NCBI GenBank assembly: GCA_020632265.1
Contig: JACKFW010000001.1
Span: forward strand, 663,272-727,271
Length of the DNA: 64,000 bases
Reading direction: 5' to 3'
DNA from: Pseudomonadales bacterium
Lineage (GTDB): Bacteria; Patescibacteriota; Microgenomatia; UBA1400; PJMF01
Shown piece by piece: positions 40,722-57,892 of the stretch. Below the pieces are notes generated by a model that was not told the DNA's origin, did not search any database, and was given only the letters and a program-made list of their open reading frames with translations. The position numbers were made by a program, and so were the translations under genes. Numbering within the stretch: position 1 is the first letter of the stretch; the number at the start of each line of letters is the position of its first letter.

Positions 40722-43700
40722 ATGATAGAGATATTAAGAAAGTCATTAAATAGAATTACCAGAAACGATCACACCATCGATTCTGACTTACTGCATGCAA
40801 CGGCAGACTCTGTGCTAGTCAAAGAGGGACATTCCGCGATAGCTCATGAAGTTGCTGATGATTTACCAGCTCTTCGCTTTCTATATAGAGTATTAATGGT
40901 CGCTTCAGAACTTGCAACGCTAAACATGACTTATTCTATGCTTAATGGAAATAGTGAAACGTTATTCATTTCAGCCATCATATACGCAATTACACGAGCC
41001 ACCGGCATTCACTACTCTAATGTGTCTCAAGAAAAAGTTTCCGAAGTACTAGAACTCGTAGTAGATGCTCTCGATGAACACCCTATCAAATCAGATTCCG
41101 ACCAACCAGCTAATCGAGAATTTAGAATTCCTTTTGATCAACTTGCTGCCATTGCTAATAATGAACGCTTCAGTCATCTAAATCCTTGGGAACAATTATT
41201 TTGGCTGGCACTTCAATTTGCAACCATCAGCTCCCAATCACCAGAGATAATTCCAGTTGCTTTAGCCGCCTGGACACTATGCTCAATAGATTTATTTTTT
41301 AGCGGTAAAGCCTACAAATGGGCACATAACAATGTCGTACATTATAGAAGTATTGCAAAAGATAGACTAAGTCGATTCAGCCATCTCACACCAAAAGAAG
41401 ATGCAAAAAAGAAACAACTTTCAGGAAGAAGAAATGCCACTGTTGATTTAATTAATTTAACTTCATATGGGCTTCCATTTTTGTTTCTAGCCTTATCGGC
41501 GATAGAGCAAGTCGGCAATGTTGTCGCCGGCGCAGCAATAATTGGATCCAAAATGTTAGGTTCTCTGTCAAGTGCGGTAAACACCAAAGAAAACCGAATC
41601 AATGGTCAAAATGCAAGCACAACTCTTGGTAAAATAAATGAAAAAGTGAAAAATGGTGGCAGAATTTTTGTTGCCACAGAAGGAGAACAACAATTCAGAA
41701 GAAATCGTGATAATCAAGAACAAAATCTAGTGCAGAAACCTGAATTAAATTTGAATACCAAATTACTAGTAGAGAAACTAGATGTAATTGCTCCTAATGG
41801 TCAAAAATTATTTGTTCTCGATGGCAGAATAGAATTAACTTGCGAAGGTAAAGGACTACTAACACTCATTTCGGGTTCAAGTGGATCAGGGAAAACCACC
41901 TTGCTTGCGGCACTAACAGAAACATCTTCTGCGTGTCAATGCGGGAGAATACAACTCGAATTAACTGAAGACAAGACTAAAATTCGACTCATAGATTTAC
42001 CAGTTGAACAATTAAAAAAAATATTTGTTTTTTGCGATGGAAGACTTCCCAATCAATCCTTAATAGATTCATTAGTATCTCCAGATAAACGTGAATTTGA
42101 TAATTTATCAGAAGCAGAAAAAGAGCAGGTAGCACGTTTTTCGTGGAGAGAACTAAAGCAATTTGCTGCTACAAATGTGAATATAAATGCAATAGTTGAA
42201 AATATACGCCATCAAGCAACAGAAATTATGGAAGAGTCACGCTTATTTTCAAACAATGAAATCCCGGGTTTATTAGATGCAAATAATTTATCTGATGCTT
42301 CTTCGGGACAAAAACGCAGGCTAGCGCTTCTTCTAGCGAGCAGAGAGGCACAAGCAAATCAAGGTGTTTTATTTATTGATGAACCACTAGCAAAACTAGA
42401 CAATGAAACTGCGCAAAGCAATACCCGTCTCGTAATTAATTTTATTAAAAGATTATTAAAAATGGGCATTCCAGTCATCATGACTGATAATTCTGCTCCA
42501 GAACTAATAATGAGAAGTTTTATCGAATATCTGGCAACTCAAATTAAATTAAAAGATAATTTCGCCACTATATTAACTTATCCTTCAGTTGTTGCGGGAT
42601 TAAAGAAACATTCTACAACAGGAAAAGATACCGAAATCAAAGCGAAATATTTAATTGGTACAAAAGTAAGAGATCAAGAAGACGATCTTTTAAAACATAT
42701 CAATGGACCATATCGTCAGGAGTTAATGCACACCCCTCCTGATTATCAAATGAAAATAATCAGGGAGGCTATGGATAAAAATGAAGAATGCAGAGTTGTA
42801 CTCGGAAAATGTTCAAGCTTATGGAATTCTTTAGAAAATTCACAAACAGAACTCACCCAAGAAGAAAATGATACTTACTTAAGTATTTTAGCAATTTATA
42901 GACATTTAGCAGCGTCAATATGTGTCGATTTAATAGATATGATGCAATCTGATTCATCAGATAATAATTATAAATTACCACAAGACTATCAAGTTTTTCT
43001 TAGTCATTTAGACAAACTTAAAACCAACTTATTATCTCTCACTGAATTTTTATTAGCAAGCACAGTAAACTTGGATTCGCAAGAATACCTATTGTTTCCC
43101 TATCAAACTACTCAAAGTTTAATCTTAGAAATGCTCAATAAATTAATAGCAACGATAAATAATGATGATGCAGGGACAAGAAATATTCTAATACCAACTA
43201 GTTGGAGGAGCGAAGAAAATTGTTTGAACACCGTATTACAAGAAATAACGCGCGCTAAGCTTGAGGCGCTCTCAAGCTACAAAAAGGTTAGAGAACACTT
43301 TTCGACTGGTATTAATATGGGCTTTAATCGTATAAATGATAGGAATAAACATAATGCAACCAATCCTCTCGATCCACACGGATTTATGGCATACCATAAA
43401 TTAGATAGATCGAAAAGAAGTTACTTGCCAAAAATTACTGATGTATTGGCCAAAAAATCTCATGATCAACTAAGACTCCTTCATCCACATTCACCAACCT
43501 TAAGAGTATTAACTTTACTTCATATTGAACAGAGCTTACTTGGTCCAAATCATTCCCTAAGAAATCCTTTACTGAGCCAATTCAATGCAGTAGGATACTA
43601 CGAAGCCACAAAAGGTATAAATTATCGTGATTATGCTCCAGAACTAACTAAAGCTCAAACCATTTTTCTACCTACGCCTTATTTAGAATATCCCAAAGGA

Positions 43701-44414
43701 TTAGTAATAGACATATCCAAACTCATAAGAGATTTAAATATGAATCTTGTAGAAATCACTCTAAGAGATACTCCTGATTCAGACAGCAATCCAATCACAA
43801 TATTGCACCAAGCAAAGCATGACTTGATAAATTATAGTAATAATGTAAATAATGTTATTTTACTTAATATATTAAATATCGGTCCAATATCAACTCAAGA
43901 AGTAGAAGAATTTCTTAGAGAACGTTGTAAAATTGCTGAAGGAAAAACAATTATAGTATTAATGCTTGAACATTCAGATGTATATCATAGGACACCTATA
44001 AACACTGTGGTAATTTCTCCTGGACTCGATCCTTGGGAAGGCCAAAAAAGAGCAAATCCCACTACTGAACAAATTGTATACCAGCCCGATATATTACACA
44101 CACTTTATCCAGGATTTATAGATTTTGATTACAAAAAATTATTAAGCATATGTCGATATGTTGATGAGGGACCATGGATCGATGATACTTACCTTTGGGA
44201 TCCAGAATACCAAAGAATGATTGCTCAATGGAAAAAAAGTAGGGAAAAAATAGTTCAAGACGACCCAATTAGTATGACACAGATTGACTCTTTTTCTTCT
44301 TTCGGCATCCCATTTAAAACGTGGATTTGTTATCTCCTACACAAAAAATCTCCCCAAAGGTTTAGATTTACTATAGATGAAGAATTAGAACCTTTACTTC
44401 ATCGCGATGATTAA
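40722..44414 (+). CDS. 1230-aa orphan protein with a central ABC/SMC-type ATPase head. Large N-terminal and C-terminal regions are unassigned.
   Basis: Walker A LTLISGSSGSGKTTLLAALTE (around 41860-41920), degenerate signature SSGQKRRLALLLAS and Walker B/D-loop VLFIDEPLAKLD (around 42300-42390). No TM segments and no coiled-coil arms are evident. Confidence 0.55.
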   Translation: MIEILRKSLNRITRNDHTIDSDLLHATADSVLVKEGHSAIAHEVADDLPALRFLYRVLMVASELATLNMTYSMLNGNSETLFISAIIYAITRATGIHYSNVSQEKVSEVLELVVDALDEHPIKSDSDQPANREFRIPFDQLAAIANNERFSHLNPWEQLFWLALQFATISSQSPEIIPVALAAWTLCSIDLFFSGKAYKWAHNNVVHYRSIAKDRLSRFSHLTPKEDAKKKQLSGRRNATVDLINLTSYGLPFLFLALSAIEQVGNVVAGAAIIGSKMLGSLSSAVNTKENRINGQNASTTLGKINEKVKNGGRIFVATEGEQQFRRNRDNQEQNLVQKPELNLNTKLLVEKLDVIAPNGQKLFVLDGRIELTCEGKGLLTLISGSSGSGKTTLLAALTETSSACQCGRIQLELTEDKTKIRLIDLPVEQLKKIFVFCDGRLPNQSLIDSLVSPDKREFDNLSEAEKEQVARFSWRELKQFAATNVNINAIVENIRHQATEIMEESRLFSNNEIPGLLDANNLSDASSGQKRRLALLLASREAQANQGVLFIDEPLAKLDNETAQSNTRLVINFIKRLLKMGIPVIMTDNSAPELIMRSFIEYLATQIKLKDNFATILTYPSVVAGLKKHSTTGKDTEIKAKYLIGTKVRDQEDDLLKHINGPYRQELMHTPPDYQMKIIREAMDKNEECRVVLGKCSSLWNSLENSQTELTQEENDTYLSILAIYRHLAASICVDLIDMMQSDSSDNNYKLPQDYQVFLSHLDKLKTNLLSLTEFLLASTVNLDSQEYLLFPYQTTQSLILEMLNKLIATINNDDAGTRNILIPTSWRSEENCLNTVLQEITRAKLEALSSYKKVREHFSTGINMGFNRINDRNKHNATNPLDPHGFMAYHKLDRSKRSYLPKITDVLAKKSHDQLRLLHPHSPTLRVLTLLHIEQSLLGPNHSLRNPLLSQFNAVGYYEATKGINYRDYAPELTKAQTIFLPTPYLEYPKGLVIDISKLIRDLNMNLVEITLRDTPDSDSNPITILHQAKHDLINYSNNVNNVILLNILNIGPISTQEVEEFLRERCKIAEGKTIIVLMLEHSDVYHRTPINTVVISPGLDPWEGQKRANPTTEQIVYQPDILHTLYPGFIDFDYKKLLSICRYVDEGPWIDDTYLWDPEYQRMIAQWKKSREKIVQDDPISMTQIDSFSSFGIPFKTWICYLLHKKSPQRFRFTIDEELEPLLHRDD

Positions 44415-44490: not shown

Positions 44491-46245
44491 TTATTTTTTT
44501 TCAATATTAAAGAAAGCATTATTACAACCACTCCCAGACCATTGTGGAATTCTCATGTTTCCAGGTGCGCGCAAATTGAATGCTTTACAAAACTCATCAC
44601 CGCTCATACTCACTCCACTAATATTTACCAAAGAAGTATTGCCATTTCCTTGTGAAACTGAAACATTATTTGCTGAAGAAAGTCCACCATATTTTGTAGC
44701 AACATCTTTCAGTTCACTAAGACTATATGGATTACCACCCCAACATTCTGTAGTCACTGGACTAATTCTCTCAGTTTCTCCACCAGAACCATTTTTTAAA
44801 ACAAGGTGAGCATTAACAATGTCAGCCATTTCTTCAGGATTTAACCAAGGATTTGACCGCCCACAGGTCGATCCATTACTACTATATCCAGCACGCCACC
44901 AGGCCTTGTAAAGCCAAGGTGAGCCTCCAATTTTTTCAAATGATTTATCAATAAAATTACTGCCACCAGATCCATCGGTTGTATCCCATCCAGAAGAAGT
45001 TGTCCATCCTCCATGGGTTGAAGCATAAAATGTCGTGACATCTTCCAAAACTTGACCCTTTGTCTGATCCACTGCTTCCTTCCAAGCTTGTGGGACATTT
45101 TCAGATTTTGATTTGTTAAATACCTGACATGCTTCTGTAATACAAATTTCATTGCCATCTTTTTTATAACGCAAAGCAAAAGTTCTTGCGGCAACTGCTT
45201 GAGCTTTAAGAGCTTCCTTGTGCCAACTCGATGGCATTTCGGCAATTCCATATAAATAAGTTGTTTCAAAATCAATACTTCCCTGACCAGCAACTCGAAT
45301 TGTTCCTGAGGTTTCAGACTCTTTATTAACTGGCTCTTTACCATAATAAAATTTTAAAATCTCAACAAAACTTTTTCCAGATTCAGCTCTCCCTCTTGCG
45401 CCATATTGACTCATACCTTTTCGATGACTGTAAGCTCCAAATGAAAAAATTGCAAAACTTCCCGAGGGAGCTTGCTCCCTAAACCCTTTTATAGATGCCA
45501 AATAATCATCGGCTAATTCACTATCTCCAATTGACGCTGTAAAACTTCCGCTTCTTGCATTAATAATTTCTTGTTGTCTAGTAGACAATTCAGCAATTTT
45601 TCCCCCCAACTCTTTCTGATAATCTTTAGCTTTGTCAATTTCTATTTTAAAAAATGTTGCTTGTTCGTCTAATTGCTTTTCTAAAGATGCTAATGTAATT
45701 TGATCAGTTTCAAGCTTTTTTTTGTCTGCTTGAAGCTCTCGAATATCTTCGCCTATTGCTTTAATAAATTGATTATCTTGATTTTTTATTGAATCTCTAT
45801 ATGCCAAATCCTTTGTTAGATCGGAAGCATTTTCACTTGCTAAGATAGTTGTAATTGGTGAGTATGTTCTAATTCTTTTGTATTGTTGGGCAATTCTTTT
45901 GGAAAAAATTTGATATTGAAAGGCTAAATCAATTTCGCGATCCTTAATCTCACCAGCAAGTTTTTCTGCTGCGGTACGTGCTACCCAAATTGAATATCTA
46001 GCATTACTAATACGTTTTTCTAATGACCCAACTTCTTGTTCAAGCGGTTTGGTAGCGTCCTCTGATAGTTTTTTAAGATGTTCAAGTTCGTCAATTTGAC
46101 TTTGTAAATCATCAACTTCATCAGCGTAAACTTGAGATAAAATCAATTCTCTAATCTCATGTCTAAAAAAATCAAATCTTGTAAAAGATATACCAAAAAA
46201 AAATAATGCTAAAACCATTTTCAAAATTGTTTCATTTTTAGTCAT
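44491..46245 (-). CDS. SpoIID/LytB-domain protein with an N-terminal TM and a coiled-coil region (cell-wall remodelling)
   Basis: SpoIID signature AYSHRKGMSQYGARGRAESGKSFVEILKFYYG. N-terminal TM, then a long heptad-like segment as in M23/LytM-family coiled-coil N-termini. Confidence 0.65.
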   Translation of the reverse strand: MTKNETILKMVLALFFFGISFTRFDFFRHEIRELILSQVYADEVDDLQSQIDELEHLKKLSEDATKPLEQEVGSLEKRISNARYSIWVARTAAEKLAGEIKDREIDLAFQYQIFSKRIAQQYKRIRTYSPITTILASENASDLTKDLAYRDSIKNQDNQFIKAIGEDIRELQADKKKLETDQITLASLEKQLDEQATFFKIEIDKAKDYQKELGGKIAELSTRQQEIINARSGSFTASIGDSELADDYLASIKGFREQAPSGSFAIFSFGAYSHRKGMSQYGARGRAESGKSFVEILKFYYGKEPVNKESETSGTIRVAGQGSIDFETTYLYGIAEMPSSWHKEALKAQAVAARTFALRYKKDGNEICITEACQVFNKSKSENVPQAWKEAVDQTKGQVLEDVTTFYASTHGGWTTSSGWDTTDGSGGSNFIDKSFEKIGGSPWLYKAWWRAGYSSNGSTCGRSNPWLNPEEMADIVNAHLVLKNGSGGETERISPVTTECWGGNPYSLSELKDVATKYGGLSSANNVSVSQGNGNTSLVNISGVSMSGDEFCKAFNLRAPGNMRIPQWSGSGCNNAFFNIEKK

Positions 46246-46405
46246 AAAGTTTATAGATCTTAGTTTATAGATCTTATTGTAACTAAAATAGTATACTATT
46301 TACCAGGACTAAAGAAATGTATATCTAGCCATATTGTCATACCTAAAGTACAATTAAATTAGTTTTTGTGATTTAAATGTAAAACTATAATACTTACAAA
46401 CATTT

Positions 46406-47638
46406 ATGGTGAAAAAACTTTTCTTATCTTTGTTAATTTTTATTTCGATCTTTTTTGCAACTCAAACAAAGGTTTTAGCTGCTGATTGTACTGGAGTTCT
46501 CGAAGGAGTTGGAGTTACTCTCGAAGAATATCAACCTGGAATGACGCATGATATTAAAATTGATCTCTCGAGTTATGATCAAGATGAAGAATATTATATA
46601 AAAGTTAAGAATTTTCAAGCAACTTTTGATGATGAATGTCAAACAGACACATTCCCGTTAAATCAAGGTAGTCAAACTGGAAGTAATAGCTCGTGTAGAT
46701 GGTATCTTAGTGGATCAGTCCTGACTTTAACCCTTACTGGCAAAGAACCTCTTTCACCTGCTCCAAGTGGTACTCAAAATGATGTTCATGTAGTAAATTT
46801 GTATAGAAGAGAGCCGTTGAGCAATTTAGTTTGTAGAATTGGAGAATACTATACTCCGCAAGTCAATCTTGGGGGTAATTGTAGCTGGCAAATTTGGCAA
46901 GGGTCAGCTCCTAATAATGCCTGTTATTATCCCGGATGTTTAGAAATAAATAAATCAACAACAATTAAAGTGATGGGCCTAGAAATGAACGGTCAGCCTT
47001 ATAACGAGGAAGTTCAATTTGAAATCTACAAAACCAGTGGTTTTATCATGGATCAAAATGCACAAGCAACAGGTGGTGAAGCACAAACAGCTTTCACGCC
47101 TACTTCAAATTCAAAACATACCATATCAATACAAATACCTAGAATTGGTAGAAATTATACTTGGCCTGATTGTATAATATCCTTTACTCCACAAGAAAAC
47201 TGTGGTGCGGATCAGTGCAATTCAGAAGAAACAACTGTCGGAGGCGGACCAAGAAGTGTTGGAGCAGATGTTTTCTCGCTTTGCGATCAAATTCCAGAAG
47301 CAAATTCCGAATTAAGAGAAAAATGCATAGAATGTGCAGGTGGTGAAGGTGGACTTGCAGGAATTTGGACAGCCATTGGCTGTATTAAAAGAGATCCTCA
47401 AGCAATAGTTGAAAAATTCATCAAATTAGGGCTGGGCATGGGTGGAGGCGTAGCACTGCTTTCATTTCTTGCTGCAGGATTTATATATAGCACTTCTCAA
47501 GGAAGTCCAGAAAAAGTTAAAAGTGCTAAAGAAATGATGACTGCATCCATCGTTGGAATCTTATTCGTCATATTTTCAGTAACATTGTTACAATTTATTG
47601 GTTGGTCAATATTTAAAATTCCTGGATTTGGAGGATAA
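46406..47638 (+). CDS. Secreted Cys-rich ectodomain protein fused to a C-terminal VirB2/TrbC-like pilin module (two hydrophobic helices with a basic loop)
   Basis: Signal peptide MVKKLFLSLLIFISIFFATQTKVLA. The C-terminus LSFLAAGFIYSTSQGSPEKVKSAKEMMTASIVGILFVIFSVTLLQF matches the module of the 59.0-62.9 kb array. Confidence 0.55.
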   Translation: MVKKLFLSLLIFISIFFATQTKVLAADCTGVLEGVGVTLEEYQPGMTHDIKIDLSSYDQDEEYYIKVKNFQATFDDECQTDTFPLNQGSQTGSNSSCRWYLSGSVLTLTLTGKEPLSPAPSGTQNDVHVVNLYRREPLSNLVCRIGEYYTPQVNLGGNCSWQIWQGSAPNNACYYPGCLEINKSTTIKVMGLEMNGQPYNEEVQFEIYKTSGFIMDQNAQATGGEAQTAFTPTSNSKHTISIQIPRIGRNYTWPDCIISFTPQENCGADQCNSEETTVGGGPRSVGADVFSLCDQIPEANSELREKCIECAGGEGGLAGIWTAIGCIKRDPQAIVEKFIKLGLGMGGGVALLSFLAAGFIYSTSQGSPEKVKSAKEMMTASIVGILFVIFSVTLLQFIGWSIFKIPGFGG

Positions 47639-47643
47639 ATCTG

Positions 47644-48381
47644 ATGAAATTAATCATAAAAAAATCCCTATTATTAATTATTGCAACTTATTTTTATTTG
47701 GGATTAATCCCAAATGATGTTAATGCTGTAGTAACCATACCATCTTCGTGTACAGGTTTTTGTATGGTTGAAAACCAACTTTGCCCTAGCGGAAGTATTA
47801 ATCCAGATCCATCATGTCAATCTGGAATAAATCCAATTTATAATGGCAATGCATGTTGTGTAGACTCTCCACCATTAAATCTAGATTGTGGCGCCTCTTA
47901 TGACCCATCACAAACCTTAGGTTGTAATTGTGATAGTGGAGTAAATGGTTTTATATATAACGGCCAAGATAGATTATGTTGCGGATGGGTCTTAGAGAAT
48001 AATGGATCAAGCGTTTGTTCATATAGTCCAGACCCTGAAGAAATTGGTCCACCAATTACAATCACTGATGGCCTTAGTTCTGCAACATTTAATGCGCTGA
48101 ATCCATTAAAAATTACCAATTCTCCTGTTGCAGACCAACTATCTTCTCCCGGAGGAATTGTTTCAAGATTATTAAGTTTTCTTTTTCCCTTGGCAGGCTT
48201 ATTATTATTTTTGTTAATTACTTGGGGGGGGTTTGAAATCCTTCTAGGATCTGCAAATCAAAAAGGTATGGAAGCTGGAAAAAATAGAATCACGGCAGCT
48301 CTTGCTGGATTCTTTTTACTATTTGCGTCATATTGGCTCGCTCAAATTGTTGAAGTAACATTTGGAGTTACCATTCTTTAA
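47644..48381 (+). CDS. Secreted Cys-rich protein fused to a C-terminal VirB2/TrbC-like pilin module
   Basis: Signal peptide. C-terminus AGLLLFLLITWGGFEILLGSANQKGMEAGKNRITAALAGFFLLFASYWLAQ. 5-nt gap to the preceding paralog. Confidence 0.55.
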   Translation: MKLIIKKSLLLIIATYFYLGLIPNDVNAVVTIPSSCTGFCMVENQLCPSGSINPDPSCQSGINPIYNGNACCVDSPPLNLDCGASYDPSQTLGCNCDSGVNGFIYNGQDRLCCGWVLENNGSSVCSYSPDPEEIGPPITITDGLSSATFNALNPLKITNSPVADQLSSPGGIVSRLLSFLFPLAGLLLFLLITWGGFEILLGSANQKGMEAGKNRITAALAGFFLLFASYWLAQIVEVTFGVTIL

Positions 48382-48433: not shown

Positions 48434-49144
48434 TTAGCTACCAAATCTTCTATTTCTTTTGTAAAATTCTAATAATATTTCATCCATTTTTTCTGGAGTA
48501 AAATCTGGATAATTGAATTTTGGAAAAATTATTTCAGAATATTCTTGTTGCCAAGACATAAATCCCGACAACCTTGTATTATCTTTGCCTGTCCTAACGA
48601 TTAAATCTGGATCTGGCATATAGCTAGTATCTAGATTATCCGAAATCATTTTTTCATCAATTTCTTCTGGTTTTATTTCTCCAGAAGACACTTTTAAAGC
48701 AATTTTTTGCATTGTTCTTTTTAACTCATCTCGTCCACCATAGTTCATTGCCAAAGTTACGGTAATTTTTTTGTTATTTTTAGTTTTTTCTTGACCATCC
48801 CTAATTCTTTTTTGAATATCCTTCTCAAATCCTTCAATATCGCCAATCATTTTTACTCTAACTCCTTTTAAATCCCAACCCTCAATTCTTTCATCAAATA
48901 TTTTTCGAAATAAATTCATTAAAAAATCTACTTCAACTCTATCGCGCTTCCAATTTTCCGTGCTAAATACCCAGAAAGTTAAATATTGTATTCCAAGCTT
49001 AATGCCATGATCAATTAAATTTTCAAAAACATCGTTAACAGCTTTTTCATGACCCATAAAGACTTTTAAACCTCTTTCTCTTGCCCACGATCTATTGCCA
49101 TCGCAAATAATTGCCATGTGTTTTGGTAGTAAATTATTATTCAT
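48434..49144 (-). CDS. uppS: Undecaprenyl diphosphate synthase (cis-prenyltransferase)
   Basis: HMAIICDGNRSWA, FSTENWKR and RTGKDNTRLSGFMSWQ match the UPPS family blocks. Confidence 0.9.
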   Translation of the reverse strand: MNNNLLPKHMAIICDGNRSWARERGLKVFMGHEKAVNDVFENLIDHGIKLGIQYLTFWVFSTENWKRDRVEVDFLMNLFRKIFDERIEGWDLKGVRVKMIGDIEGFEKDIQKRIRDGQEKTKNNKKITVTLAMNYGGRDELKRTMQKIALKVSSGEIKPEEIDEKMISDNLDTSYMPDPDLIVRTGKDNTRLSGFMSWQQEYSEIIFPKFNYPDFTPEKMDEILLEFYKRNRRFGS

Positions 49145-49211
49145 CTTATTATCCTTATTTAGTCATTCTCATTATATTATAATATTTCATTAGTCCATCT
49201 CTACAAATTTT

Positions 49212-49760
49212 TTATTTCAACTGTTTAATCTGTTCAGCATAAACTTCATCCCAACATTCATCTAAAATTTTAATGTGTTTCAAATTTACTAAGCCATCAT
49301 TTTTAATAAATTCCTTTAATTCAGCTTGAGAGAAAAACTTCGTCTCTGATACTTCGGTTGATTCAAAATTAATTACTTCATCATCATAAATTCCTAGATA
49401 GTAGTACATAAAATGCGTTTCCCAAACATATTTTTGCAATTTTTTGTTTATAAAAATTAAGCTAGTATCAAAGCCCAATTCTTCTTCCAACTCTCTGTGA
49501 GCAGTTTCCAACAAATCATCTCCTTTAAGAACATGTCCTGCTGTTAATGACCACATATTTGGATTAACTGTCTTATATTTACTTCTTTTTTGTAAAAGAA
49601 TTTTATTATTTTTATCAATAATAATCACTGAAATTTCTCTGTGTATTAAATTAGGACTTGAGTTTGCTTTCTTTCTAACTACTTCACCAATAATTTCATC
49701 GTTTTCATCAACTAGGTCAAGGATTTCTTCTGGTTTATTGGCTAATTGAGAATTATTCAT
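49212..49760 (-). CDS. Nudix hydrolase
   Basis: Nudix box GHVLKGDDLLETAHRELEEELG. Lacks the IDI-1 Cys/Glu active-site blocks. Confidence 0.7.
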   Translation of the reverse strand: MNNSQLANKPEEILDLVDENDEIIGEVVRKKANSSPNLIHREISVIIIDKNNKILLQKRSKYKTVNPNMWSLTAGHVLKGDDLLETAHRELEEELGFDTSLIFINKKLQKYVWETHFMYYYLGIYDDEVINFESTEVSETKFFSQAELKEFIKNDGLVNLKHIKILDECWDEVYAEQIKQLK

Positions 49761-49818
49761 AAAATTTAGAGAGTGGCTAAACTGTTTAAACTAACTGATA
49801 GGATTCGTGTTTCAGTGA

Positions 49819-50835
49819 TTAAAATAAATGGTCCTTTAAAAATTGTGGTTTTCCTCCAACTTTTGCAGTCAAAATATTTTGTACTAAACTCAATTTTTTC
49901 AACCGCTCTCTAACAATCTTTTCATGTTTAGGTAAAGTTAAAACATGAACATTAAAACCTGTATTTATAGTAAAGTAACACTCAATTCCTTGAGCTCTCA
50001 TATTTTGAACTTCTAAAATCACCTGCACAGTTCCTGGATACCAAAGAACTAGGGGTGGTCTGCTCGTAAGCAATATTGAATGAAATTCTAAACACTCTGC
50101 TTCGACTAACAATCCTAGAGAGGTAAAATCTTTTTCTTTAATGAATTTTTTTGTATCTTTAATTTTTTGCTTAATATTATCTTGTCGTGCTTGAAAAAAG
50201 ATCCCTGAAGCTGCTGACTCATGTCCTTTGGTAGAGGAAATTTTTTTGATACCTGAATCTACAACTGCTACCACATCTACAATATCCCAATGTTCCTTTT
50301 CAAAAATTGTCCTTGAATATGAAGTTTCTGAGGTATTTCCATCAAGCCACTCAACAAATCCACCGACCGCACACCTGCATGCAGTACCTGAAGCTTGTCT
50401 GCTTAAAATACTTAGTTGTTTTTCATTTAATTCCAAACCTATTGCTTTTACTGCTGCAAAAGTTAATGCTGCCATTCCCGAACCAGAACTCGAAAGACCA
50501 GTTCCTCTTGGAAAAGAATTAATTGAAACGACTTTGGCATAGTAATCCGAACCAGGTAAATTTGCTGTTTTTGCAAGGTCACGAATACGATTTAAATGTT
50601 TTGCAACTCTTCTAGCCTCTCTTGAATCATCAGCAATGACTTTGCCACTAATCATAAATTCATCTTTTGAATAATCGCCGGAAAATTTAACCGTTGTTGT
50701 CGTGTCTAACCCATCGAGCTTAATCGAGATACTTCCGTTTTCAGGTAATCTTAAAATTTTGTCTTTTTTGCCCCAATACTTAACTAAAGCAATGTCACTC
50801 GAGGCCTTAACAGTTGCTTTTTTTTCTTCTAACAT
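49819..50835 (-). CDS. mvaD: Diphosphomevalonate decarboxylase
   Basis: IALVKYWGKKDKILRLPENGSISIKL, GHMP motif-2-like GTGLSSSGSGMAAL and ATP-binding region. Confidence 0.85.
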   Translation of the reverse strand: MLEEKKATVKASSDIALVKYWGKKDKILRLPENGSISIKLDGLDTTTTVKFSGDYSKDEFMISGKVIADDSREARRVAKHLNRIRDLAKTANLPGSDYYAKVVSINSFPRGTGLSSSGSGMAALTFAAVKAIGLELNEKQLSILSRQASGTACRCAVGGFVEWLDGNTSETSYSRTIFEKEHWDIVDVVAVVDSGIKKISSTKGHESAASGIFFQARQDNIKQKIKDTKKFIKEKDFTSLGLLVEAECLEFHSILLTSRPPLVLWYPGTVQVILEVQNMRAQGIECYFTINTGFNVHVLTLPKHEKIVRERLKKLSLVQNILTAKVGGKPQFLKDHLF

Positions 50836-50931
50836 ATTATTCCGTTCTTATTTATAACTTTTAGAATTTGTTTTAATAATCAATTAATACTATTTTTGTC
50901 AATTTTAATTGGAGAGTTTTCAAATTTAAAA

Positions 50932-51921
50932 CTATTTTTTCTCCAATCTAACACCTGGAGCATTCAAATTAACTTTAATTATCTTTCCACCAACATTTTT
51001 CATAGCTTTTTCAACTTTTTGACGATTTTTTTCATTAACAATTGTCAAGACACAATCACCACCTGCTGCACCAGAAGCCGTTGATCCATATGCTCCCGCA
51101 TTGTTAGCTGCGACAATTAATTCTTCAATTTTATTATTACTAACTTTCAAGTTTCTTATATACTCTTGAGATTGATTAAATATTTTTCCAACTTTTTTCC
51201 AATCAAATTTTTCCGCAGATTCTACAAAATCATCAGCTAACTTGCCAATTCCATCAAAAACTTTATTTATATATTCCGAATCTTCTTCCAACATATTATT
51301 AACAATTCTAATTAAGGTTGGAGTGTCTGCTTTAGCGCCTGAATAAGCAATTACTATTGGAAGTTGCTCGGCCTTAATTTTTTTAACAATTCTTGCTGGA
51401 GATACAAAATAAAGAGTTCCACCCCAAATTGCCGCAGCCAAATCAAAACCAGAACCTACTCCTTGAACATCTAAAACAGCTTTATAACAAAGTTCAAAGA
51501 GCTCTTTGTTTGACAACTTAACTTTGTAAAGAGTAGTTAGTGCTTTTGCAAAAGCAACCGTGACCGCACTACTAGAACCGAAACCATAAGAACTTGAGAA
51601 ATCGCTACTTGTAGTAACAATAATTCCTTCCTTTTGCGGATGTTTTTCTAAAAAGTTTTTATACAGAATTTCAATAAAACGTACGGCTTTTGGCAAATCT
51701 TTTGTTCCAAGCTCAGAAATAGTTTTTGTATATGCACTCAAACCCAGATCTGGTGCGTCTAAGTGGAATACGTCAATGCCGTTTTTCATTACTGTGGCAT
51801 AAAGTCGTTGATCAACAGCAGTCACAATAGTTGGTCTACCATGCACCACTGCATAGCCCACGGATAACATAAGTTTTCCTGGAGCAGATGCTGTGATTTG
51901 TTGAATTTTATTTTTTGTCAT
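50932..51921 (-). CDS. GHMP kinase, phosphomevalonate kinase-like
   Basis: SAPGKLMLSVGYAVVHG (Pmk-like GYxVL variant) and GFGSSSAVTVAFAKAL (GHMP motif 2). It sits between mvk and mvaD. Confidence 0.65.
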   Translation of the reverse strand: MTKNKIQQITASAPGKLMLSVGYAVVHGRPTIVTAVDQRLYATVMKNGIDVFHLDAPDLGLSAYTKTISELGTKDLPKAVRFIEILYKNFLEKHPQKEGIIVTTSSDFSSSYGFGSSSAVTVAFAKALTTLYKVKLSNKELFELCYKAVLDVQGVGSGFDLAAAIWGGTLYFVSPARIVKKIKAEQLPIVIAYSGAKADTPTLIRIVNNMLEEDSEYINKVFDGIGKLADDFVESAEKFDWKKVGKIFNQSQEYIRNLKVSNNKIEELIVAANNAGAYGSTASGAAGGDCVLTIVNEKNRQKVEKAMKNVGGKIIKVNLNAPGVRLEKK

Positions 51922-51941
51922 ACCAAAAGAGCTATTTTACC

Positions 51942-52856
51942 TTAATTTACTTGAATTTTGTAGTTTCTAGCTGGATTTCTGGCTAAATAAGAATCAAGAA
52001 TACTGTCGTCTAGATGGTAAACTAGCAACAAACCAGAACCATTTTCAATTCCACCCGCACCTGTAATCTTAGCAAATCCTCCTATTGATTCAATTTCCTT
52101 GACCATTTTCTTGGCTTTTTTTCCAACCACGCCCAACTTTTCTAACAACCTTTGATTGATTGAAAGTAAACTTGGATCAAATTTTTGATCAACAATGCTC
52201 GTTATCAAATTATTGGTGACCATTCCAATTTTATTTATTATTTCTTTTTTTTGAGAACTTTTTTCAATATTATTTTTTACTAAATTAACCATTTCTCCCG
52301 TACTTTCAATCGATCTACCAGAGTTTATTAATCTAAAACTCAGAATGGAAGAATTTTCTATTTTTTCTCTTTCAAAATTTTTGTTTATTTTTTTAAATAC
52401 CTGAGTACCTGAAAATACTACCGCAGACGCATCAACCCCACTTGGATTGTTGTGTACAAATTTTTCAGCTTCATATACTAAATCAAAAATTTCTTCTTTT
52501 GATAAATTTAAATTTAAATAATCAATTAATGCCAAAATTATTGCGTGAGCATAGGCTGAAGATGAACCAAGTCCAGATTTTGACGGCAAGTTGGAAGTAA
52601 CTAGAAAGTTTAAATTATCAAGTTCGTTGTCAATTTTTTTCAAGTTTTGGGGATACAAATTTCGATTAATAAGATAATTTTGAAAAACTGAAAGAATATG
52701 ATTCAAATAATTATTTTTTGAAATATTCAAATGATTAATTACCTCTGCTTTTACACCCAAATCAATCGAGGAAACCAATGCTGGTTGACCATAAACAACA
52801 CTATGTTCCCCGCTTAAAATAACTTTCCCTGGTGAGAAAAAAATTTTTTGTTTCAT
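51942..52856 (-). CDS. mvk: Mevalonate kinase
   Basis: SPGKVILSGEHSVVYGQPALVSSI and SKSGLGSSSAYAHAIILAL. Start placed at MKQKIFF; the ORF-track extension to 52961 is probably not translated. Confidence 0.75.
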   Translation of the reverse strand: MKQKIFFSPGKVILSGEHSVVYGQPALVSSIDLGVKAEVINHLNISKNNYLNHILSVFQNYLINRNLYPQNLKKIDNELDNLNFLVTSNLPSKSGLGSSSAYAHAIILALIDYLNLNLSKEEIFDLVYEAEKFVHNNPSGVDASAVVFSGTQVFKKINKNFEREKIENSSILSFRLINSGRSIESTGEMVNLVKNNIEKSSQKKEIINKIGMVTNNLITSIVDQKFDPSLLSINQRLLEKLGVVGKKAKKMVKEIESIGGFAKITGAGGIENGSGLLLVYHLDDSILDSYLARNPARNYKIQVN

Positions 52857-52953
52857 AACACTTATTTGATTTGATTTAAAATCATTTATTTGTCTTGATA
52901 GCAAACTATCAGACATATTGTTAGTCGGAAGAATCACCAAAAACCACGCAAAT

Positions 52954-53250
52954 TTAATCAATTTTTACTAACTTAATGCCGTAATTAATTAATGAAGCTC
53001 TGTCATTTTCCGCAGTTTTTCTTAAAACAAATTCGACTTTATCACCCTTTTTAAGATCTGCTCCTTTTTCACTCATAAATTCATATCTTTCTGAATCCAT
53101 TTCAACAATGGCAAAACAATAAGGAAGGTATTCTTGAAGCTCGGGAGATGTAACTTCAATCTTAGTAACAAACACAATTTTCCCAGTTTTTCCTACAAAG
53201 TTATTCCAATTTTTATTTTGACGCCAATAATCTGCAGGATTAAATTGCAT
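52954..53250 (-). CDS. DUF35 OB-fold protein (thiolase/HMG-CoA synthase scaffold subunit)
   Basis: 98-aa protein with OB-fold-like GKTGKIVFVTKIEV...FAIVEMDSERYEFMSEKGADLKKGDKVEF. Position between thiolase/HMGCS and the kinases. Confidence 0.65.
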   Translation of the reverse strand: MQFNPADYWRQNKNWNNFVGKTGKIVFVTKIEVTSPELQEYLPYCFAIVEMDSERYEFMSEKGADLKKGDKVEFVLRKTAENDRASLINYGIKLVKID

Positions 53251-53261
53251 ATTACTTCTCC

Positions 53262-54626
53262 TTACTTCTCCAAAATATGAACTACTACGGTCGCTCCACT
53301 TCCGCCAACATTATGAGCCAAGGCATATTGAAATTTTTGCTTTCTCAACCCCAACTTAGATTCTGATATCGATCCCGAAGGTGGTTTGAATCCTATTTTG
53401 TCCTGATTTTCGAGGAATTCTGCTAAATAAGCTACCTGTTTTACTCCGGTAGCACCTACGGGATGACCGCATGCTTTTAATCCACCAGAAGGATTAATAA
53501 TAATTTCACCACCAAATGTCGTTTTTCCATCTAAGGTTGCTTTACCACCAGTACCCGGTTTAAAAAAACCCAAATCTTCAATTGCTAAAATCTCCGCAAT
53601 GGTAAAACAATCATGAACTTCAGCAACTTTAACATCATTATGAGTGATTCCCGCATGTGCAAATGCTTCTTTAGCCGCTTTTTTTGTTGCAAGCAAACTC
53701 GTTAAACTTTGTCTATTCGCCAAACTCAAAGAATCTTGCGCGTGACCAAATCCAATGATTTTGGGTTTATTTTCATAGCTAATGATTTTATTTTTTCGCC
53801 TACTTTTACTTATATCTTTTTTATTCAAATTTAAAAGATTGCCAACTTCCTTTGTACTTAAAATTACCGCACTTGCCCCATCTGAAACTGGAGAACAATC
53901 TAAAAGTCTGAGCGGATCCGCCACCATTGAGCTTTTACTTACCTGCTCAGAAGTAAATATTTTCCTAAAATGTGCCTTTGGATTATTGATAGCATGTCGA
54001 TGATTTTTAACTGAAACAGCCGACAGTTGTTCTCTCGTTGTACCATATTTATGCATATGCGCTTTGGCTAACAATGCATAAAGTGCTGGGAAAGTACTTC
54101 CATATTCAAAATCATAGTCTGATGCACTAGAAAGTACTTTAGTTGCTTCATTAGAGTTTAGATCAGTCATTTTCTCTACTCCCAATACCAAAACTGTTTT
54201 GTATCTCCCAGAATTTAGAGCATTTTGCGCGGTTATCAATGCCAACGAGCCAGATGCGCAAGCACCTTCCACCCTAATGGCTGGAGGATAATGATTAAAA
54301 ATCTGACTAACCATCGCATTTAAGTGCAACTGATTATTAAAAAGCCCTGAGGCCATATTTGCAATAAAAACTGCTTCAATTTCTTCTGGATCAAAGTCGT
54401 GATTTTTGGAAACACTCTTGATTACCCCGTTAACAGCTTCGTTAATCAAAACTGCGAGCGATTTATCCCACAACTCTCCAAACTGATCTGAAATATAAGT
54501 TCCAACAATCCTAATTTGTTTTTGTGAATTTCTATTAATTTTTTTTGAACTAAAATCTAGCGTTTTGTTATCAATAATATGCGTTTTGTTATCAATAATA
54601 TGCGTTTTGTTCATATGTTTCATCAA
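53262..54626 (-). CDS. Thiolase-like acetyl-CoA acetyltransferase (archaeal/SCP-x type) with a repeat-containing N-terminal extension
   Basis: IRIVGTYISDQFGEL and catalytic VEGACASGSLAL. C-terminal HNVGGSGATVVVHIL. N-terminus NKTHIIDNKTHIIDNKT comes from a 22-nt DNA repeat. Confidence 0.8.
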   Translation of the reverse strand: MMKHMNKTHIIDNKTHIIDNKTLDFSSKKINRNSQKQIRIVGTYISDQFGELWDKSLAVLINEAVNGVIKSVSKNHDFDPEEIEAVFIANMASGLFNNQLHLNAMVSQIFNHYPPAIRVEGACASGSLALITAQNALNSGRYKTVLVLGVEKMTDLNSNEATKVLSSASDYDFEYGSTFPALYALLAKAHMHKYGTTREQLSAVSVKNHRHAINNPKAHFRKIFTSEQVSKSSMVADPLRLLDCSPVSDGASAVILSTKEVGNLLNLNKKDISKSRRKNKIISYENKPKIIGFGHAQDSLSLANRQSLTSLLATKKAAKEAFAHAGITHNDVKVAEVHDCFTIAEILAIEDLGFFKPGTGGKATLDGKTTFGGEIIINPSGGLKACGHPVGATGVKQVAYLAEFLENQDKIGFKPPSGSISESKLGLRKQKFQYALAHNVGGSGATVVVHILEK

Positions 54627-54718
54627 TAATTGCTGTTAAATATTTTTAACGATTTTAAATATTTTTTTAGCGATTTTAAATATTTTTAACGATTTTATTA
54701 ATTATCAACCTAGATTAT

Positions 54719-55798: not shown

Positions 55799-55837
55799 AT
55801 TTGTTATCAACTAACTCTTATTTATCAAACAATAAGT

Positions 55838-57256: not shown

Positions 57257-57892
57257 CTAAACTAAGTCCTTAAGTGCCGAAATCAACCTTCGATCTCTAA
57301 GCATCATGCAAGACCAAGGAGCAAGAAGTTTTTTCTGATCATTAATTTTAATCTGACACGGTGCAGTTCTGTCTTTGAGTTGATCAAAACTCATCACTAA
57401 AGTTTGCTCTGGAGAAGGAATTGAAGTATTAATATTAATTTGAGCTACTAACTCATCAAGATCGACCCAATCTATCTCACTCACTTCGCTAGCATTTGGT
57501 ATTACTTTTCCTTCATATCTACTTACAAATACCTCATCAAATTCAAATTCTCCATATTTATCATTGCAATATGCTTTATATATAAACTTATAAACTGGAA
57601 TGAGATCCAAATTTTCAATATTTATCTCATCTTTTAATCTTCTCTTTGCACAATTTAAATAAATCTCATCTGGCCTAACATTGCCACAAATTGCATTCGC
57701 CCACCATGAAGCGCCTACAATTTTTTCTAAACTTCTTTTTTGTAACAAAATTTTGCCTTGTTTATTTATTAACCATACTGATACGGCCTGATGAAGTTTT
57801 GCTGGATGTTCATGAGCCTTAAACTTGTCCATCTTTCCAACGTACTTGTCATCGAAATCAACAACTATTACTTTATCTTTGTCATCAATCAT
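57257..57892 (-). CDS. idi: Isopentenyl-diphosphate delta-isomerase, type 1
   Basis: LHQAVSVWLINKQGKILLQKRSLEKIVGASWWANAICGNVRPDE aligns with E. coli Idi [44 protein letters not shown]. C-terminal EFEFDEVFV...EIDWVDLDEL aligns too. Confidence 0.8.
   Translation of the reverse strand: MIDDKDKVIVVDFDDKYVGKMDKFKAHEHPAKLHQAVSVWLINKQGKILLQKRSLEKIVGASWWANAICGNVRPDEIYLNCAKRRLKDEINIENLDLIPVYKFIYKAYCNDKYGEFEFDEVFVSRYEGKVIPNASEVSEIDWVDLDELVAQININTSIPSPEQTLVMSFDQLKDRTAPCQIKINDQKKLLAPWSCMMLRDRRLISALKDLV

Follow-up and report, generated by a model that had tools for sequence, protein, structure and literature searches.

VirB2-like pilin arrays are widespread in Patescibacteria, with 441 arrays described and an abundance of them in Microgenomatia (PMC12102498). 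Known examples are the essential pilin array of S. epibionticum ML1 and the 'Sec-secreted array' of TM7x (Wang et al. 2023, PMC10633639; Quinonero-Coronel et al. 2025, PMC12102498), and in S. epibionticum the VirB2-like pilins are essential (PMC10633639). The Patescibacteria type IV secretion system (T4SS) is itself essential for epibiotic growth and, alone among monoderm systems, has VirB2-like pilins (PMC12857230, PMC11665869). Gram-positive-type T4SSs normally have no pilus (PMC12102498, PMC12857230), no pilus has yet been seen for any Patescibacteria T4SS, and no member of the pilin family PF18895 has been shown to polymerise (PMC12857230). Homologues of VirB6 and VirB3 are scarce, or rarely near virB4, in Microgenomatia, and 1135 of 1948 assemblies had pilins near virB4, so that this proximity is not universal (PMC12102498). 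We found no mention of head-pilin fusions in PMC10633639 or PMC12102498.

Here we analysed two adjacent genes, P1 and P2, in a 64,000-nucleotide stretch of DNA (the window) from an ultra-small, monoderm Patescibacteria bacterium. Together with an eight-gene array at 59-63 kb (A1-A8), they share with the described Patescibacteria arrays the phylum, the Pfam family, a Sec signal followed by a two-helix hairpin, and the presence of multiple divergent paralogues per genome; the array is a typical Microgenomatia example. Unlike the small described pilins, P1 has ~300 aa of head, including 14 Cys, in front of its hairpin and P2 has ~140 aa, and the pair is set away from the array and distant from any recognised virB4. 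Both ORFs have exactly the coordinates and lengths given in an earlier note on this DNA, and P1 is identical to NCBI H6772_03495. The features of the pair are as follows.

46406-47638, plus strand: P1 gene, ORF of 410 aa; PF18895 at residues 343-398; AF2 mean pLDDT 86
46406-46480, plus strand: P1 Sec signal peptide, residues 1-25, predicted cleavage after VLA
46487-47185, plus strand: P1 head, two Ig-like beta-sandwiches, residues ~28-150 and ~160-260; AF2 strands with pLDDT of at least 90
47276-47395, plus strand: P1 Cys-knot connector, residues 291-330, FSLCxQIP...CxxC.GG...G.WTAIGCI.RDP
47396-47635, plus strand: P1 pilin module, residues 331-410 (AF2 helices, PF18895)
47644-48381, plus strand: P2 gene, ORF of 245 aa; PF18895 at 29.5 bits; AF2 mean pLDDT 81.5
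47749-48024, plus strand: P2 Cys-rich head, residues 36-127, 12 Cys
48079-48378, plus strand: P2 conserved core, residues 146-245, F.xLNPL...LSTPGGIVSR helices and hairpin 169-201/206-240 (AF2)

The two genes are separated by 5 bp, and the pairing is kept among related loci with a gap of 0-5 bp, at a conserved position; the pair is probably co-transcribed. Scanning the P1-P2 region for promoters and terminators gave no more hits than shuffled sequence did, and a 14-bp tandem repeat upstream of P1 had no copy near the array. Both N-termini carry ordinary Sec-type signal peptides with an AxA-type site, as had been claimed, with cleavage predicted between TKVLA and ADC in P1 and between DVNA and VV in P2, and with the hydrophobic module at the opposite, C-terminal end. 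Among 52 P1 homologues, the Ala at -1 (A25) is nearly invariant and the Cys at +3 (C28) invariant, and the signal region forms a helix (residues 2-18) in the AF2 model. P1 as a lipoprotein was rejected: the conserved Cys lies three residues past the predicted cleavage and there is no lipobox. P1 contains 14 Cys and P2 12, none of them within the C-terminal hairpin, and Cys was always even in number (14, 12, 6, 2, 2), every one outside the hairpin. Both ectodomains are therefore Cys-rich as described in the earlier note, but that of P2 spans ~140 aa (its Cys-rich part ~90 aa, residues 36-125) rather than 200 aa or more, and the "many CxxC" spacings were not borne out, P1 holding a single one.

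The C-terminus of all ten proteins (P1, P2 and A1-A8) matches PF18895 (T4SS_pilin, VirB2-like), whose Pfam gathering score is 26.6 bits. P2 and five of the eight array genes (31-44 bits) score above this value and P1 itself just under it, at 24.2 bits, while across the P1 family E fell below 0.01 for 51 of 52 members (best 1e-8). With an HMM made from the eight array modules and nothing else, P2 scored 44.4 bits (E=3e-13) and P1 37.8 bits (E=4e-11), and the runner-up among the 477 ORFs of the window stopped at 7.3 bits; across 500 shuffles for P2 and P1, made within 10-residue windows so that the hydrophobic layout was preserved, the maxima were 18.3 and 15.4 bits. No pilin module was found in window ORFs beyond these ten. 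Aligning the ten modules revealed a common loop motif, (W)I(T/S)sGG..xK.e.A(K/R)N(K/R)IT, with one invariant Gly. The C-terminal resemblance to the array that had been noticed from the letters alone thus survives both scoring and alignment. Identity between the P1 or P2 hairpin and the array modules is only 18-29%, and Lys/Arg residues occur in the hairpin loops (SPEKVKSAK, NQKGMEAGKNR). At 410 and 245 aa, P1 and P2 lie outside the range of ~100-180 aa expected of family members that are hardly larger than the module, as against 123-182 aa for the array genes, and it is here that the two depart from the family. The canonical family PF04956 (cut-off 27.9 bits) returned sub-threshold scores of 16-18 bits for A7 and A8 (E=0.004 and 0.011) and no match for P1 or P2, and when PDB sequences were searched with the module profile, neither a solved VirB2, TraA or TrbC pilin nor anything else relevant turned up. 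Sub-threshold MatE matches within the hairpin are spurious. The pilin-like module proposed earlier is hence a genuine pilin module, but of the VirB2-like secretion-system type (PF18895) and not of the type IV pilus (T4P). T4P minor pilins were discarded as candidates, there being no N-terminal class III prepilin signal and the module being C-terminal.

P1 consists, in order, of a signal peptide, two Ig-like beta-sandwiches, a Cys-knot, a VirB2-like hairpin and an invariant PGFGG end. The family is narrow (~130 clusters at 50% identity), and the 125 homologues collected are mostly 380-450 aa long. Twelve conserved Cys hold the two-sandwich head; C28, C143, C159, C173, C178 and C256 are conserved in the head itself, and C293, C307, C310 and C326 are invariant in the Cys-knot. 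The earlier note had proposed structure prediction of the ectodomains, and for P1 this gave a confident fold (mean pLDDT 86) whose head matches tandem Ig/FN3/macroglobulin (MG)-type domains in Foldseek (E ~1e-5); a few P1 relatives also match Big_1, Invasin_D3 or MG4. In the AF2 model the module comprises helix 331-363, the loop STSQGSPEKVK, helix 368-403 and the tail KIPGFGG. Mean identity across P1 homologues rises from 24% in the head to 57% in the Cys-knot and 69% in the hairpin; judged by these alignments, the evolution of the head is far more rapid than that of the hairpin, and the description of P1 as a pilin module fused to a large variable head stands. A head-only profile searched against 1.84 billion proteins yielded 132 representatives, nearly all of 380-450 aa. 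The P1 hairpin terminates 97 of 102 new matches, the other five being two truncated fragments and three weak matches in unrelated proteins of >900 aa. Across the sequences searched, the P1 head thus appears solely as a fusion to the pilin hairpin and never without it. The converse does occur: P1 orthologues at two related loci (L065 and L068) are headless, with the Cys-knot and hairpin only (165-173 aa), so that the head is dispensable for the role of the core.

P2 follows the same plan on a smaller scale, with a signal peptide, a small Cys-rich head, conserved pre-hairpin helices and a VirB2-like hairpin. Invariant and nearly invariant columns fall in its core (44 homologues), and the alignment of P2 homologues (150 collected) revealed a hypervariable head, with 0 to ~200 aa inserted at the head site and many orthologues (134-150 aa) lacking it. 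The head is modelled as a small variable beta module, and Foldseek against the PDB gave no match to the P2 fold below E=1; the only pilus among the fold matches was that of Aeropyrum pernix (8dfu), at a non-significant E=5 (TM 0.58, target-normalised; 69 columns; 22% identity). The large variable head ascribed to P2 is therefore variable but small, has no significant PDB fold match and is often absent, and P2 is in essence a plain pilin paralogue whose decoration is optional.

These architectures can be set beside those of better-known filaments. As in VirB2/TrbC/TraA (PF04956; T-pilus, F-pilus, pKM101), a signal peptide is followed by two hydrophobic helices and a short basic loop; unlike P1 and P2, those pilins have no folded N-terminal domain, and the host here is monoderm. 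The likeness of P1 to VirB5/TraC is confined to a proposed role as a minor, tip-located, adhesin-like component: VirB5 is soluble, helical and without a pilin hairpin, whereas P1 has an all-beta Ig-like head fused to a pilin fold, and Pfam and NCBIfam searches of P1 and P2 gave no match to VirB5-type families. Archaeal Ced/Ted pili likewise have VirB2-like hairpin pilins and no outer membrane, but their pilins, which are linked to DNA import, lack head domains. The logic of the proposed design is that of FimH in type 1 pili and the CofB/TcpB-type minor pilins of type IVb pili, which incorporate through a pilin module, bind through an extra variable domain and are present in one or a few copies at the tip; their folds and assembly (chaperone-usher, and type IV pilus with prepilin peptidase, respectively) are unrelated to those of P1 and P2.

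The remainder of the locus comprises the following features.

24375-26702, minus strand: coupling-protein-like (VirD4/TraD/DUF87) ATPase, 775 aa; DUF87, TrwB_AAD_bind
48434-57100, minus strand: intervening block with UPP synthase, NUDIX and mevalonate pathway genes (decarboxylase, two GHMP kinases, thiolase, HMG-CoA synthase, HMG-CoA reductase), by Pfam
58455-59003, minus strand: ECF-type sigma factor; Sigma70_r2, r4_2 and ECF domains
59050-62884, plus strand: eight VirB2-like pilin genes, A1-A8, ORFs that all match PF18895
59050-59427, plus strand: A1
59430-59855, plus strand: A2
59858-60406, plus strand: A3
60432-60812, plus strand: A4
60818-61243, plus strand: A5
61243-61713, plus strand: A6
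61995-62366, plus strand: A7
62450-62884, plus strand: A8

The sigma factor gene is divergent from A1 across a 46-bp spacer and adjoins the array in this orientation in 14 of 14 related array-bearing loci, making it a candidate regulator. The pair and the array bracket the mevalonate operon, as first noticed, and the same block lies between the array and P2-P1 at further loci (L001-L004, L006-L008, L035, L038, L050, L056, L065, L068 and L075). Divergent Microgenomatia share a recurring layout of ECF sigma factor, ordered array, mevalonate operon, UPP synthase, P2-P1 and SpoIID, although their HMG-CoA reductases are only 36-39% identical, which lends support to the suggestion of a single larger locus interrupted by housekeeping genes. 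Array order is collinear with that of divergent genomes, reading A1 A3 A4 A5 A6 A7 A8 in L012 and A1 A3 A4 A6 A7 A8 in L035 and L050, and the gene that takes the place of P2 in distant genomes has A1 or A7 as its closest array class. On this comparison of gene orders and sequences, the array classes are ancient and fixed in order across genomes, in contrast to the published suggestion of antigenic-variation-like diversity. Ancient paralogues in a fixed order are hard to reconcile with recent tandem duplication and argue for heteromeric assembly rather than antigenic variation, a view that changes which experiments make sense.

Neither P1-P2 nor the array has a recognisable VirB4, VirB6 or VirB3 gene within 10 kb. 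In the whole window a single gene could be recognised as T4SS-type machinery, that of the coupling-protein-like ATPase, 20 kb from P1. The ATPase also matches TraD, VirD4-like CD1115 and CedD models weakly, and alignments that cover 80-93% of it show 24-30% identity with 'type IV secretion system DNA-binding domain' proteins of Bacillus, Streptomyces and haloarchaeal plasmids. The genes that follow the array were traced for 10 kb past the window end (L086) and in a related genome (L087), and form a block encoding proteins of ~1170 aa (secreted), 352-372 aa, 545-599 aa (polytopic), 878-1034 aa and 709-778 aa. This block has no Pfam match and no Walker A motif, and no VirB4 can be claimed in it. 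Its polytopic protein is VirB6-like by architecture alone.

Taken together, P1 and P2 are plausible candidates for tip or minor subunits of a putative filament. We tentatively favour the explanation, to which we give a little less than an even chance, that they are head-bearing VirB2-like paralogues of the Patescibacteria T4SS and would serve as rare or minor filament subunits, the earlier note having proposed minor or tip subunits. Following Sec export and signal cleavage, the hairpin would sit in the membrane with its short Lys/Arg loop in the cytoplasm and the head outside, and the T4SS would then extract the pilins from the membrane and stack their hairpins into a tube, as for VirB2, TraA and TrbC. 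Because the pilin N-terminus points outward in VirB2/TraA/TrbC filaments, the N-terminal head of P1 would be displayed outside the filament, and P1 would be a rare subunit given its steric bulk and single copy per genome. As conjugative pili grow from the base, a priming subunit would end up at the tip, where P1 could act as an Ig-like adhesin or host-recognition element, with P2 as a neighbouring minor subunit or as an adaptor to a shaft of array pilins. The combination of a fast-evolving head with a strongly conserved hairpin would fit a variable binding surface on a constrained assembly interface. The further step, in which P1, P2 and A1-A8 are differentiated parts of one heteropolymeric T4SS-derived surface filament with P1 as its built-in Ig-like tip adhesin, we consider unlikely. 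Against the favoured explanation itself stand the hairpins of P1 and P2, which form conserved classes of their own (18-29% identity to the array), so that the two could assemble apart from it, as well as the lack of any observed filament (PMC12857230), of recognisable machine genes near either cluster and of a match to solved pilins, and the headless P1 orthologues.

Several other explanations have to be weighed. P1 and P2 may instead be membrane-anchored surface adhesins or receptors, whose hairpin acts as an anchor or as a dock for the secretion machine and does not polymerise. The host is a monoderm, in which T4SSs of the Gram-positive type normally lack a pilus (PMC12102498, PMC12857230), and none has been seen so far (PMC12857230); tandem Ig-like heads are typical of cell-surface adhesins, and no T4SS machine genes were recognised adjoining P1-P2 or the array. 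An anchor, however, would need neither 69% identity, nor an invariant PGFGG, nor a loop motif common to eight small paralogues, and headless P1 and P2 orthologues are kept at the same position, so that the hairpin itself carries the selected function. On balance we find this explanation somewhat unlikely. More improbable still is a separate two-component filament or cap, with P2 as the main and P1 as the head-bearing component, related to the array through the ancestry of the module only. It would account for the 10.7 kb and the opposite-strand operon that part the pair from the array, for a putative promoter region of its own, for P1 and P2 being distinct, deeply conserved classes, and for the array having its own divergent ECF sigma factor; both clusters nevertheless flank the same block despite 36-39% HMG-CoA reductase identity, and the match of the P2-position gene to A1 or A7 in distant genomes blurs the separation.

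The ten paralogues might alternatively be stoichiometric parts of a T4SS channel or stalk, filling VirB3-, VirB5- and VirB6-like roles with P1 outermost and wall-spanning, and with no filament at all. Ancient classes in a fixed order look more like differentiated structural parts than like antigenic variants, and the scarcity of VirB6 and VirB3, or their rarity near virB4, leaves structural roles unfilled in Microgenomatia (PMC12102498). Against this, none of the ten has similarity to VirB3, VirB5 or VirB6 families and all keep a pilin-type hairpin, and we judge it very unlikely. There is next to no chance that the similarity is merely compositional or that the proteins are T4P minor pilins, both of which we regard as refuted here: two hydrophobic helices do dominate the module, P1 does fall slightly below the Pfam gathering score and spurious MatE matches do occur, but scores of 38-44 bits stand against at most 18 for layout-preserving shuffles and 7 for other ORFs, the loop motif is conserved, and a Sec signal with a C-terminal module takes the place of an N-terminal class III prepilin signal.

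VirB2-like pilin arrays were already known in Patescibacteria (PMC12102498). What appears to be new is P1, a narrow family whose 12-Cys Ig-like head occurs only as a pilin-hairpin fusion; P2, apparently a hitherto undescribed pilin whose small, hypervariable Cys-rich head is missing from many orthologues; and the apparently novel recurrence, in divergent Microgenomatia, of a layout running from ECF sigma factor and array through mevalonate genes and UPP synthase to P2-P1 and SpoIID. As a conserved pilin paralogue with a fast-evolving, disulfide-stapled Ig-like head, P1 is an obvious candidate host-contact element, and it gives a concrete handle on whether a Patescibacteria T4SS filament exists and what sits at its tip. 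Were all ten proteins to form one heteropolymer, it would be the first conjugative-type pilus with an adhesin fused to a pilin, and a first also in being assembled from many ancient pilin classes; were P1 and P2 plain membrane-anchored adhesins, they would still constitute a lineage-specific family of surface proteins in Microgenomatia, which have no cultured representative. Extending the single-heteropolymer reading, we note more speculatively that the conserved position of the pilin clusters around the mevalonate/UPP-synthase operon may be functional, for example if an isoprenoid lipid replaced the one-to-one phospholipid of conjugative pili.

The genes P1 and P2 lie 5 bp apart, and our ORF calls place them exactly where the earlier note had, together with the following surroundings:

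44491-46245, SpoIID, upstream of P1 and divergent from it
46406-47638, plus strand, P1, ORF of 410 aa
47644-48381, plus strand, P2, ORF of 245 aa
49819-57100, minus strand, mevalonate operon
55838-57100, minus strand, HMG-CoA reductase of this operon
57889-58233 and 58261-58437, minus strand, two small membrane ORFs after the ECF sigma gene, candidate anti-sigma
58455-59003, minus strand, ECF sigma factor, divergent, 46 bp from the first array gene
59050-62884, plus strand, the array of eight ORFs (A1-A8) for small VirB2-like pilins

NCBI holds entries identical to P1 and P2 (H6772_03495 and H6772_03500, both on a contig of 1.08 Mb). Both N-termini are ordinary Sec-type signal peptides, as had been claimed; in P1, A25, just before the predicted cleavage site, is nearly invariant across 52 homologues, and C28, three residues further on, is invariant. 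All 14 cysteines of P1 and all 12 of P2 precede the C-terminal hydrophobic module, and the count is even in each of the ten proteins carrying that module (14, 12, 2, 0, 6, 0, 0, 0, 0 and 2), as expected for extracellular disulfides. The heads are thus Cys-rich as described, but where many CxxC or Cx(n)C spacings were reported, P1 has a single CxxC, and the ectodomain size of 200-330 aa does not hold for P2, whose ectodomain measures ~140 aa, of which ~90 aa are Cys-rich.

The C-termini of all ten proteins match the Pfam family PF18895 (T4SS_pilin); its gathering threshold of 26.6 bits is exceeded by P2 and five array members, and P1 reaches 24.2. An alignment of the ten modules spans ~90 columns and shows two hydrophobic helices joined by a common loop motif, (W)I(T/S)sGG..xK.e.A(K/R)N(K/R)IT, after which comes an invariant Gly. 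As a non-circular check, an HMM was built from the eight array modules alone, leaving out P1 and P2; it recovered P2 at 44.4 bits (E=3e-13) and P1 at 37.8 bits (E=4e-11), with 7.3 bits for the runner-up among 477 window ORFs, many membrane proteins included. When each module was shuffled 500 times within 10-residue windows, preserving the hydrophobic layout, the maxima were 18.3 bits for P2 and 15.4 for P1. The proposed likeness to the array is therefore real, and the loop motif, the array-only HMM and the shuffles rule out a purely compositional similarity. None of the remaining window ORFs contains the module. We conclude that it is a type IV secretion system (T4SS) pilin of the VirB2-like kind (PF18895); a type IV pilus pilin is ruled out, as the proteins lack a prepilin signal and have their hydrophobic part at the C-terminus. 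P1 and P2 belong to PF18895, departing from its usual members in size and in gene neighbourhood, and membership in canonical PF04956 VirB2/TrbC, VirB5 or T4P pilins could not be demonstrated for either.

The P1 family (125 matches, mostly 380-450 aa) has 12 conserved cysteines: C28, C143, C159, C173, C178, C256, C266, C271, C293, C307, C310 and C326. An AlphaFold2 model of P1, with the 52-sequence alignment as input, reached a mean pLDDT of 86 and comprises:

residues ~28-150 and 160-260, two beta-sandwich domains, mostly above pLDDT 90
residues 284-290, linker of low confidence
residues 292-328, small Cys-knot
residues 331-363 and 368-403, helical hairpin

Foldseek searches against the PDB and viral models returned exclusively tandem Ig-like, FN3 and macroglobulin-type domains (among them filamin, PD-L1, complement C3/C5, CD109, and Big_1 and FN3 phage proteins), at E values of 1e-5 to 1e-7 with low TM-scores, and a few family members match Big_1 (1e-9), Invasin_D3 or MG4 in Pfam. 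These two sets of matches point to a confidently predicted but generic adhesin-type Ig tandem, corresponding to no specific known adhesin. Mean identity to P1 across 51 homologues is 69% in the hairpin, 57% in the knot and 24% in the head. A head-only profile run against 1.84 billion representatives found just 132 proteins, nearly all of 380-450 aa and matching at ~26-300; of the 102 head matches new to the analysis, 97 end in a P1-type hairpin, the other five being two truncated fragments and three weak matches in unrelated long proteins. The P1 head therefore occurs solely fused to this pilin module. Head size varies: distant orthologues in L065 and L068 consist of knot and hairpin alone (165-173 aa), and larger-headed ones reach 485 aa (L056) and 578 aa (L075). 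The P1 C-terminus, ...KIPGFGG, is invariant in the 52 homologues; its PGFG(G) end (residues 406-410, window 47621-47635) might act as a signal for processing or sorting, on the model of TrbC/VirB2, which are processed at the C-terminus.

P2 gave 150 matches, whose common part is confined to the last ~100 residues (F.xLNPL...LSTPGGIVSR.L.FLFPLAGL...WGGFEIL...KG.EAGKNRITAA..GF.LLF..YW..Q.), and its Cys-rich N-terminal part ranges from 0, in orthologues of 134-150 aa, to ~200 aa. The AlphaFold2 model (mean pLDDT 81.5) shows:

residues 80-127, small beta modules above pLDDT 90
residues 146-166, short helices
residues 169-201 and 206-240, hairpin

No PDB fold match fell below E=1; the helical matches include 8dfu, the Aeropyrum pernix conjugation pilus, at a non-significant level. 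We regard P2 as a pilin class of its own, whose hypervariable decoration is optional.

The window neighbours of P1 and P2 are housekeeping genes. Downstream of P2, the minus strand carries UPP synthase, NUDIX, mevalonate decarboxylase, two GHMP kinases and thiolase, then HMG-CoA synthase, HMG-CoA reductase, NUDIX, the two small membrane ORFs (possibly anti-sigma) and the ECF sigma gene. P1-P2 is flanked by SpoIID and UPP synthase in four syntenic loci (L001-L004). For a wider comparison, we anchored on the window HMG-CoA reductase in GTDB species genomes, scanned with family HMMs and located marker genes. The full layout (array, divergent ECF sigma, mevalonate operon, UPP synthase, P2-P1, SpoIID) is present in the close relatives L006-L008 and in L038, L056, L065 and L068, where reductase identity is just 36-39%; it is partial in L035, L050 and L075. 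All 14 array-holding loci have the ECF sigma gene next to, and divergent from, the opening gene of the array. The layout is clade-specific: in other CPR lineages, for instance Levybacteria (L027), the operon has no pilin genes nearby. Its recurrence lends real support to the earlier suggestion of one larger locus split by housekeeping genes, but the arrangement may instead be kept by the conserved backbone synteny of small CPR genomes.

Taking each pilin's best match within the window set, in order, we obtained A1 A2 A3 A4 A5/6 A7 A8 in L006-L008 (identity 47-76%), A1 A3 A4 A5 A6 A7 A8 in the distant L012, and A1 A3 A4 A6 A7 A8 in L035 and L050; six to seven distinct labels would ascend by chance once in 720-5040. 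Same-order positional orthologues thus occur in L006-L008, L012, L035, L038, L050 and L056, with reductases only 36-43% identical, which argues against recent tandem duplication and marks the array genes as old, differentiated paralogues. The ten genes thus comprise at least eight ancient and differentiated pilin classes that keep fixed positions. On these sequence comparisons, distinct structural roles would fit better than antigenic variation, an idea proposed for pilin arrays (PMC12102498), and the collinearity alters how such arrays should be interpreted.

The sole T4SS-type machine gene recognised within the 64 kb is the following:

24375-26702, minus strand, coupling-protein-like ATPase of 775 aa (DUF87 and TrwB_AAD_bind; weak TraD, VirD4-like and CedD matches)

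It has an N-terminal TM helix and a Walker A motif (GKTGTGKS), and over 80-93% of its length it shares 24-30% identity with proteins of Bacillus, Streptomyces and haloarchaeal plasmids that are annotated 'type IV secretion system DNA-binding domain' or 'TraM recognition domain'. No further T4SS genes lie near it. It starts 2 bp after the stop of a 215-aa Asn/Gln/Thr-rich low-complexity protein without family match (24375-27352 for the pair, minus strand). Directly past the array, a conserved block (window 62907-64000 and L086:727-10704, beyond the window end; L087:5250-21638 in a related genome) encodes:

a secreted protein of ~1170 aa with a C-terminal 'AMSITESGG'
a polytopic membrane protein of 545-599 aa with a signal peptide, ~6 TM helices and a Gly-rich tail
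several large cytoplasmic proteins

The 'AMSITESGG' may recall a lytic-transglycosylase catalytic motif, and the polytopic protein, whose homologues number more than 800 and reach 77% identity, resembles VirB6 in architecture only. Since the block gave no Pfam match and no Walker A motif in L086 or L087, VirB4 cannot be claimed there; its proteins could be unrecognised machine parts.

Taken together, this analysis establishes P1 and P2 as a conserved pair, each with a Sec signal, an extracellular Cys-rich head and a VirB2-like hairpin with a short Lys/Arg loop. From the established behaviour of VirB2, TraA and TrbC pilins, the hairpin would sit in the membrane with its loop cytoplasmic and both termini outside; a T4SS would then pull pilins from the membrane and stack them into a tube, loops lining the lumen and termini facing outward, which would put the P1 head on the outer face. 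P1 would most economically be a rare subunit, because 300-aa heads pack poorly at every position and each genome has one P1. Conjugative-type pili of the VirB2/TraA/TrbC kind are extended at the base, which would leave a priming subunit at the tip. The conserved hairpin and knot would form the assembly interface and the fast-evolving Ig tandem the binding surface. FimH and CofB are two-domain tip adhesins; P1 would follow a like design logic, but set on a conjugative-type pilin fold, a combination of which we know of no described example.

That P1 is a rare, head-bearing tip subunit of a T4SS-type filament is a tentative proposal, somewhat short of probable. Its main rival, in which the hairpin only anchors or docks cell-surface adhesins, is rather unlikely; the generic adhesin-type head sits beside a module whose loop motif is shared with the array. 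A separate structure built by P1-P2 on their own, which lie away from the array yet recur with it in the full layout, seems improbable, and we consider it very improbable that the pilin paralogues, for all their fixed order, are stoichiometric parts of an envelope-spanning channel.

VirB2-like pilins were surveyed in 1948 Patescibacteria assemblies by Quinonero-Coronel et al. 2025, with profiles including PF18895, giving 441 arrays of 2-11 genes, plentiful in Microgenomatia and Saccharimonadia, with ~25% identity inside arrays (PMC12102498). The eight-gene array is thus typical and of a known kind; since such arrays and the PF18895 family are already published, P1 and P2 do not amount to a new system. 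In Southlakia epibionticum, the pilin series and the T4SS are both essential (Wang et al. 2023, PMC10633639), and a 2025 review describes Patescibacteria T4SSs as the sole monoderm ones having VirB2-like pilins, with a pilus merely possible and their function unknown (PMC12857230). We came across no mention of large-headed pilin fusions in these papers, and NCBI gives a few relatives the bare name 'pilin'. P1 is a concrete candidate, open to testing, for the host-contact element of the Patescibacteria T4SS.

Several further features of the window were observed. Between a RecF-like gene and SpoIID lies an inserted gene (40722-44414, plus strand) that is missing from L001-L004; its 1230-aa product has an ABC-type ATPase domain in the middle and is otherwise devoid of recognisable domains. 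The divergent SpoIID/P1 intergenic region holds a perfect 14-bp tandem direct repeat (46249-46276, plus strand; two copies of GTTTATAGATCTTA), with no copy near the array. Among GTDB species genomes, the closest non-CPR matches to the HMG-CoA reductase come from Methanomicrobiales archaea (35-39% identity); the mevalonate pathway of this bacterial lineage may be archaeal-type, as these matches suggest. The genome is patescibacterial (CPR), with relatives among Pacebacteria, Woesebacteria, Gottesmanbacteria and Microgenomates MAGs. The labels 'Pseudomonadales' or 'uncultured Gammaproteobacteria' stand on the source MAG and on several related ones (L011, L012, L019, L054, L056 and others); the public label is probably wrong, because gene content and relatives are those of Patescibacteria/Microgenomatia. 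The 23S rRNA gene (4087-7959, minus strand) exceeds the Rfam bacterial LSU model by ~950 nt, and the insertion holds a 162-aa ORF (5181-5669, minus strand); rRNA insertions and introns of this kind are common in CPR bacteria.
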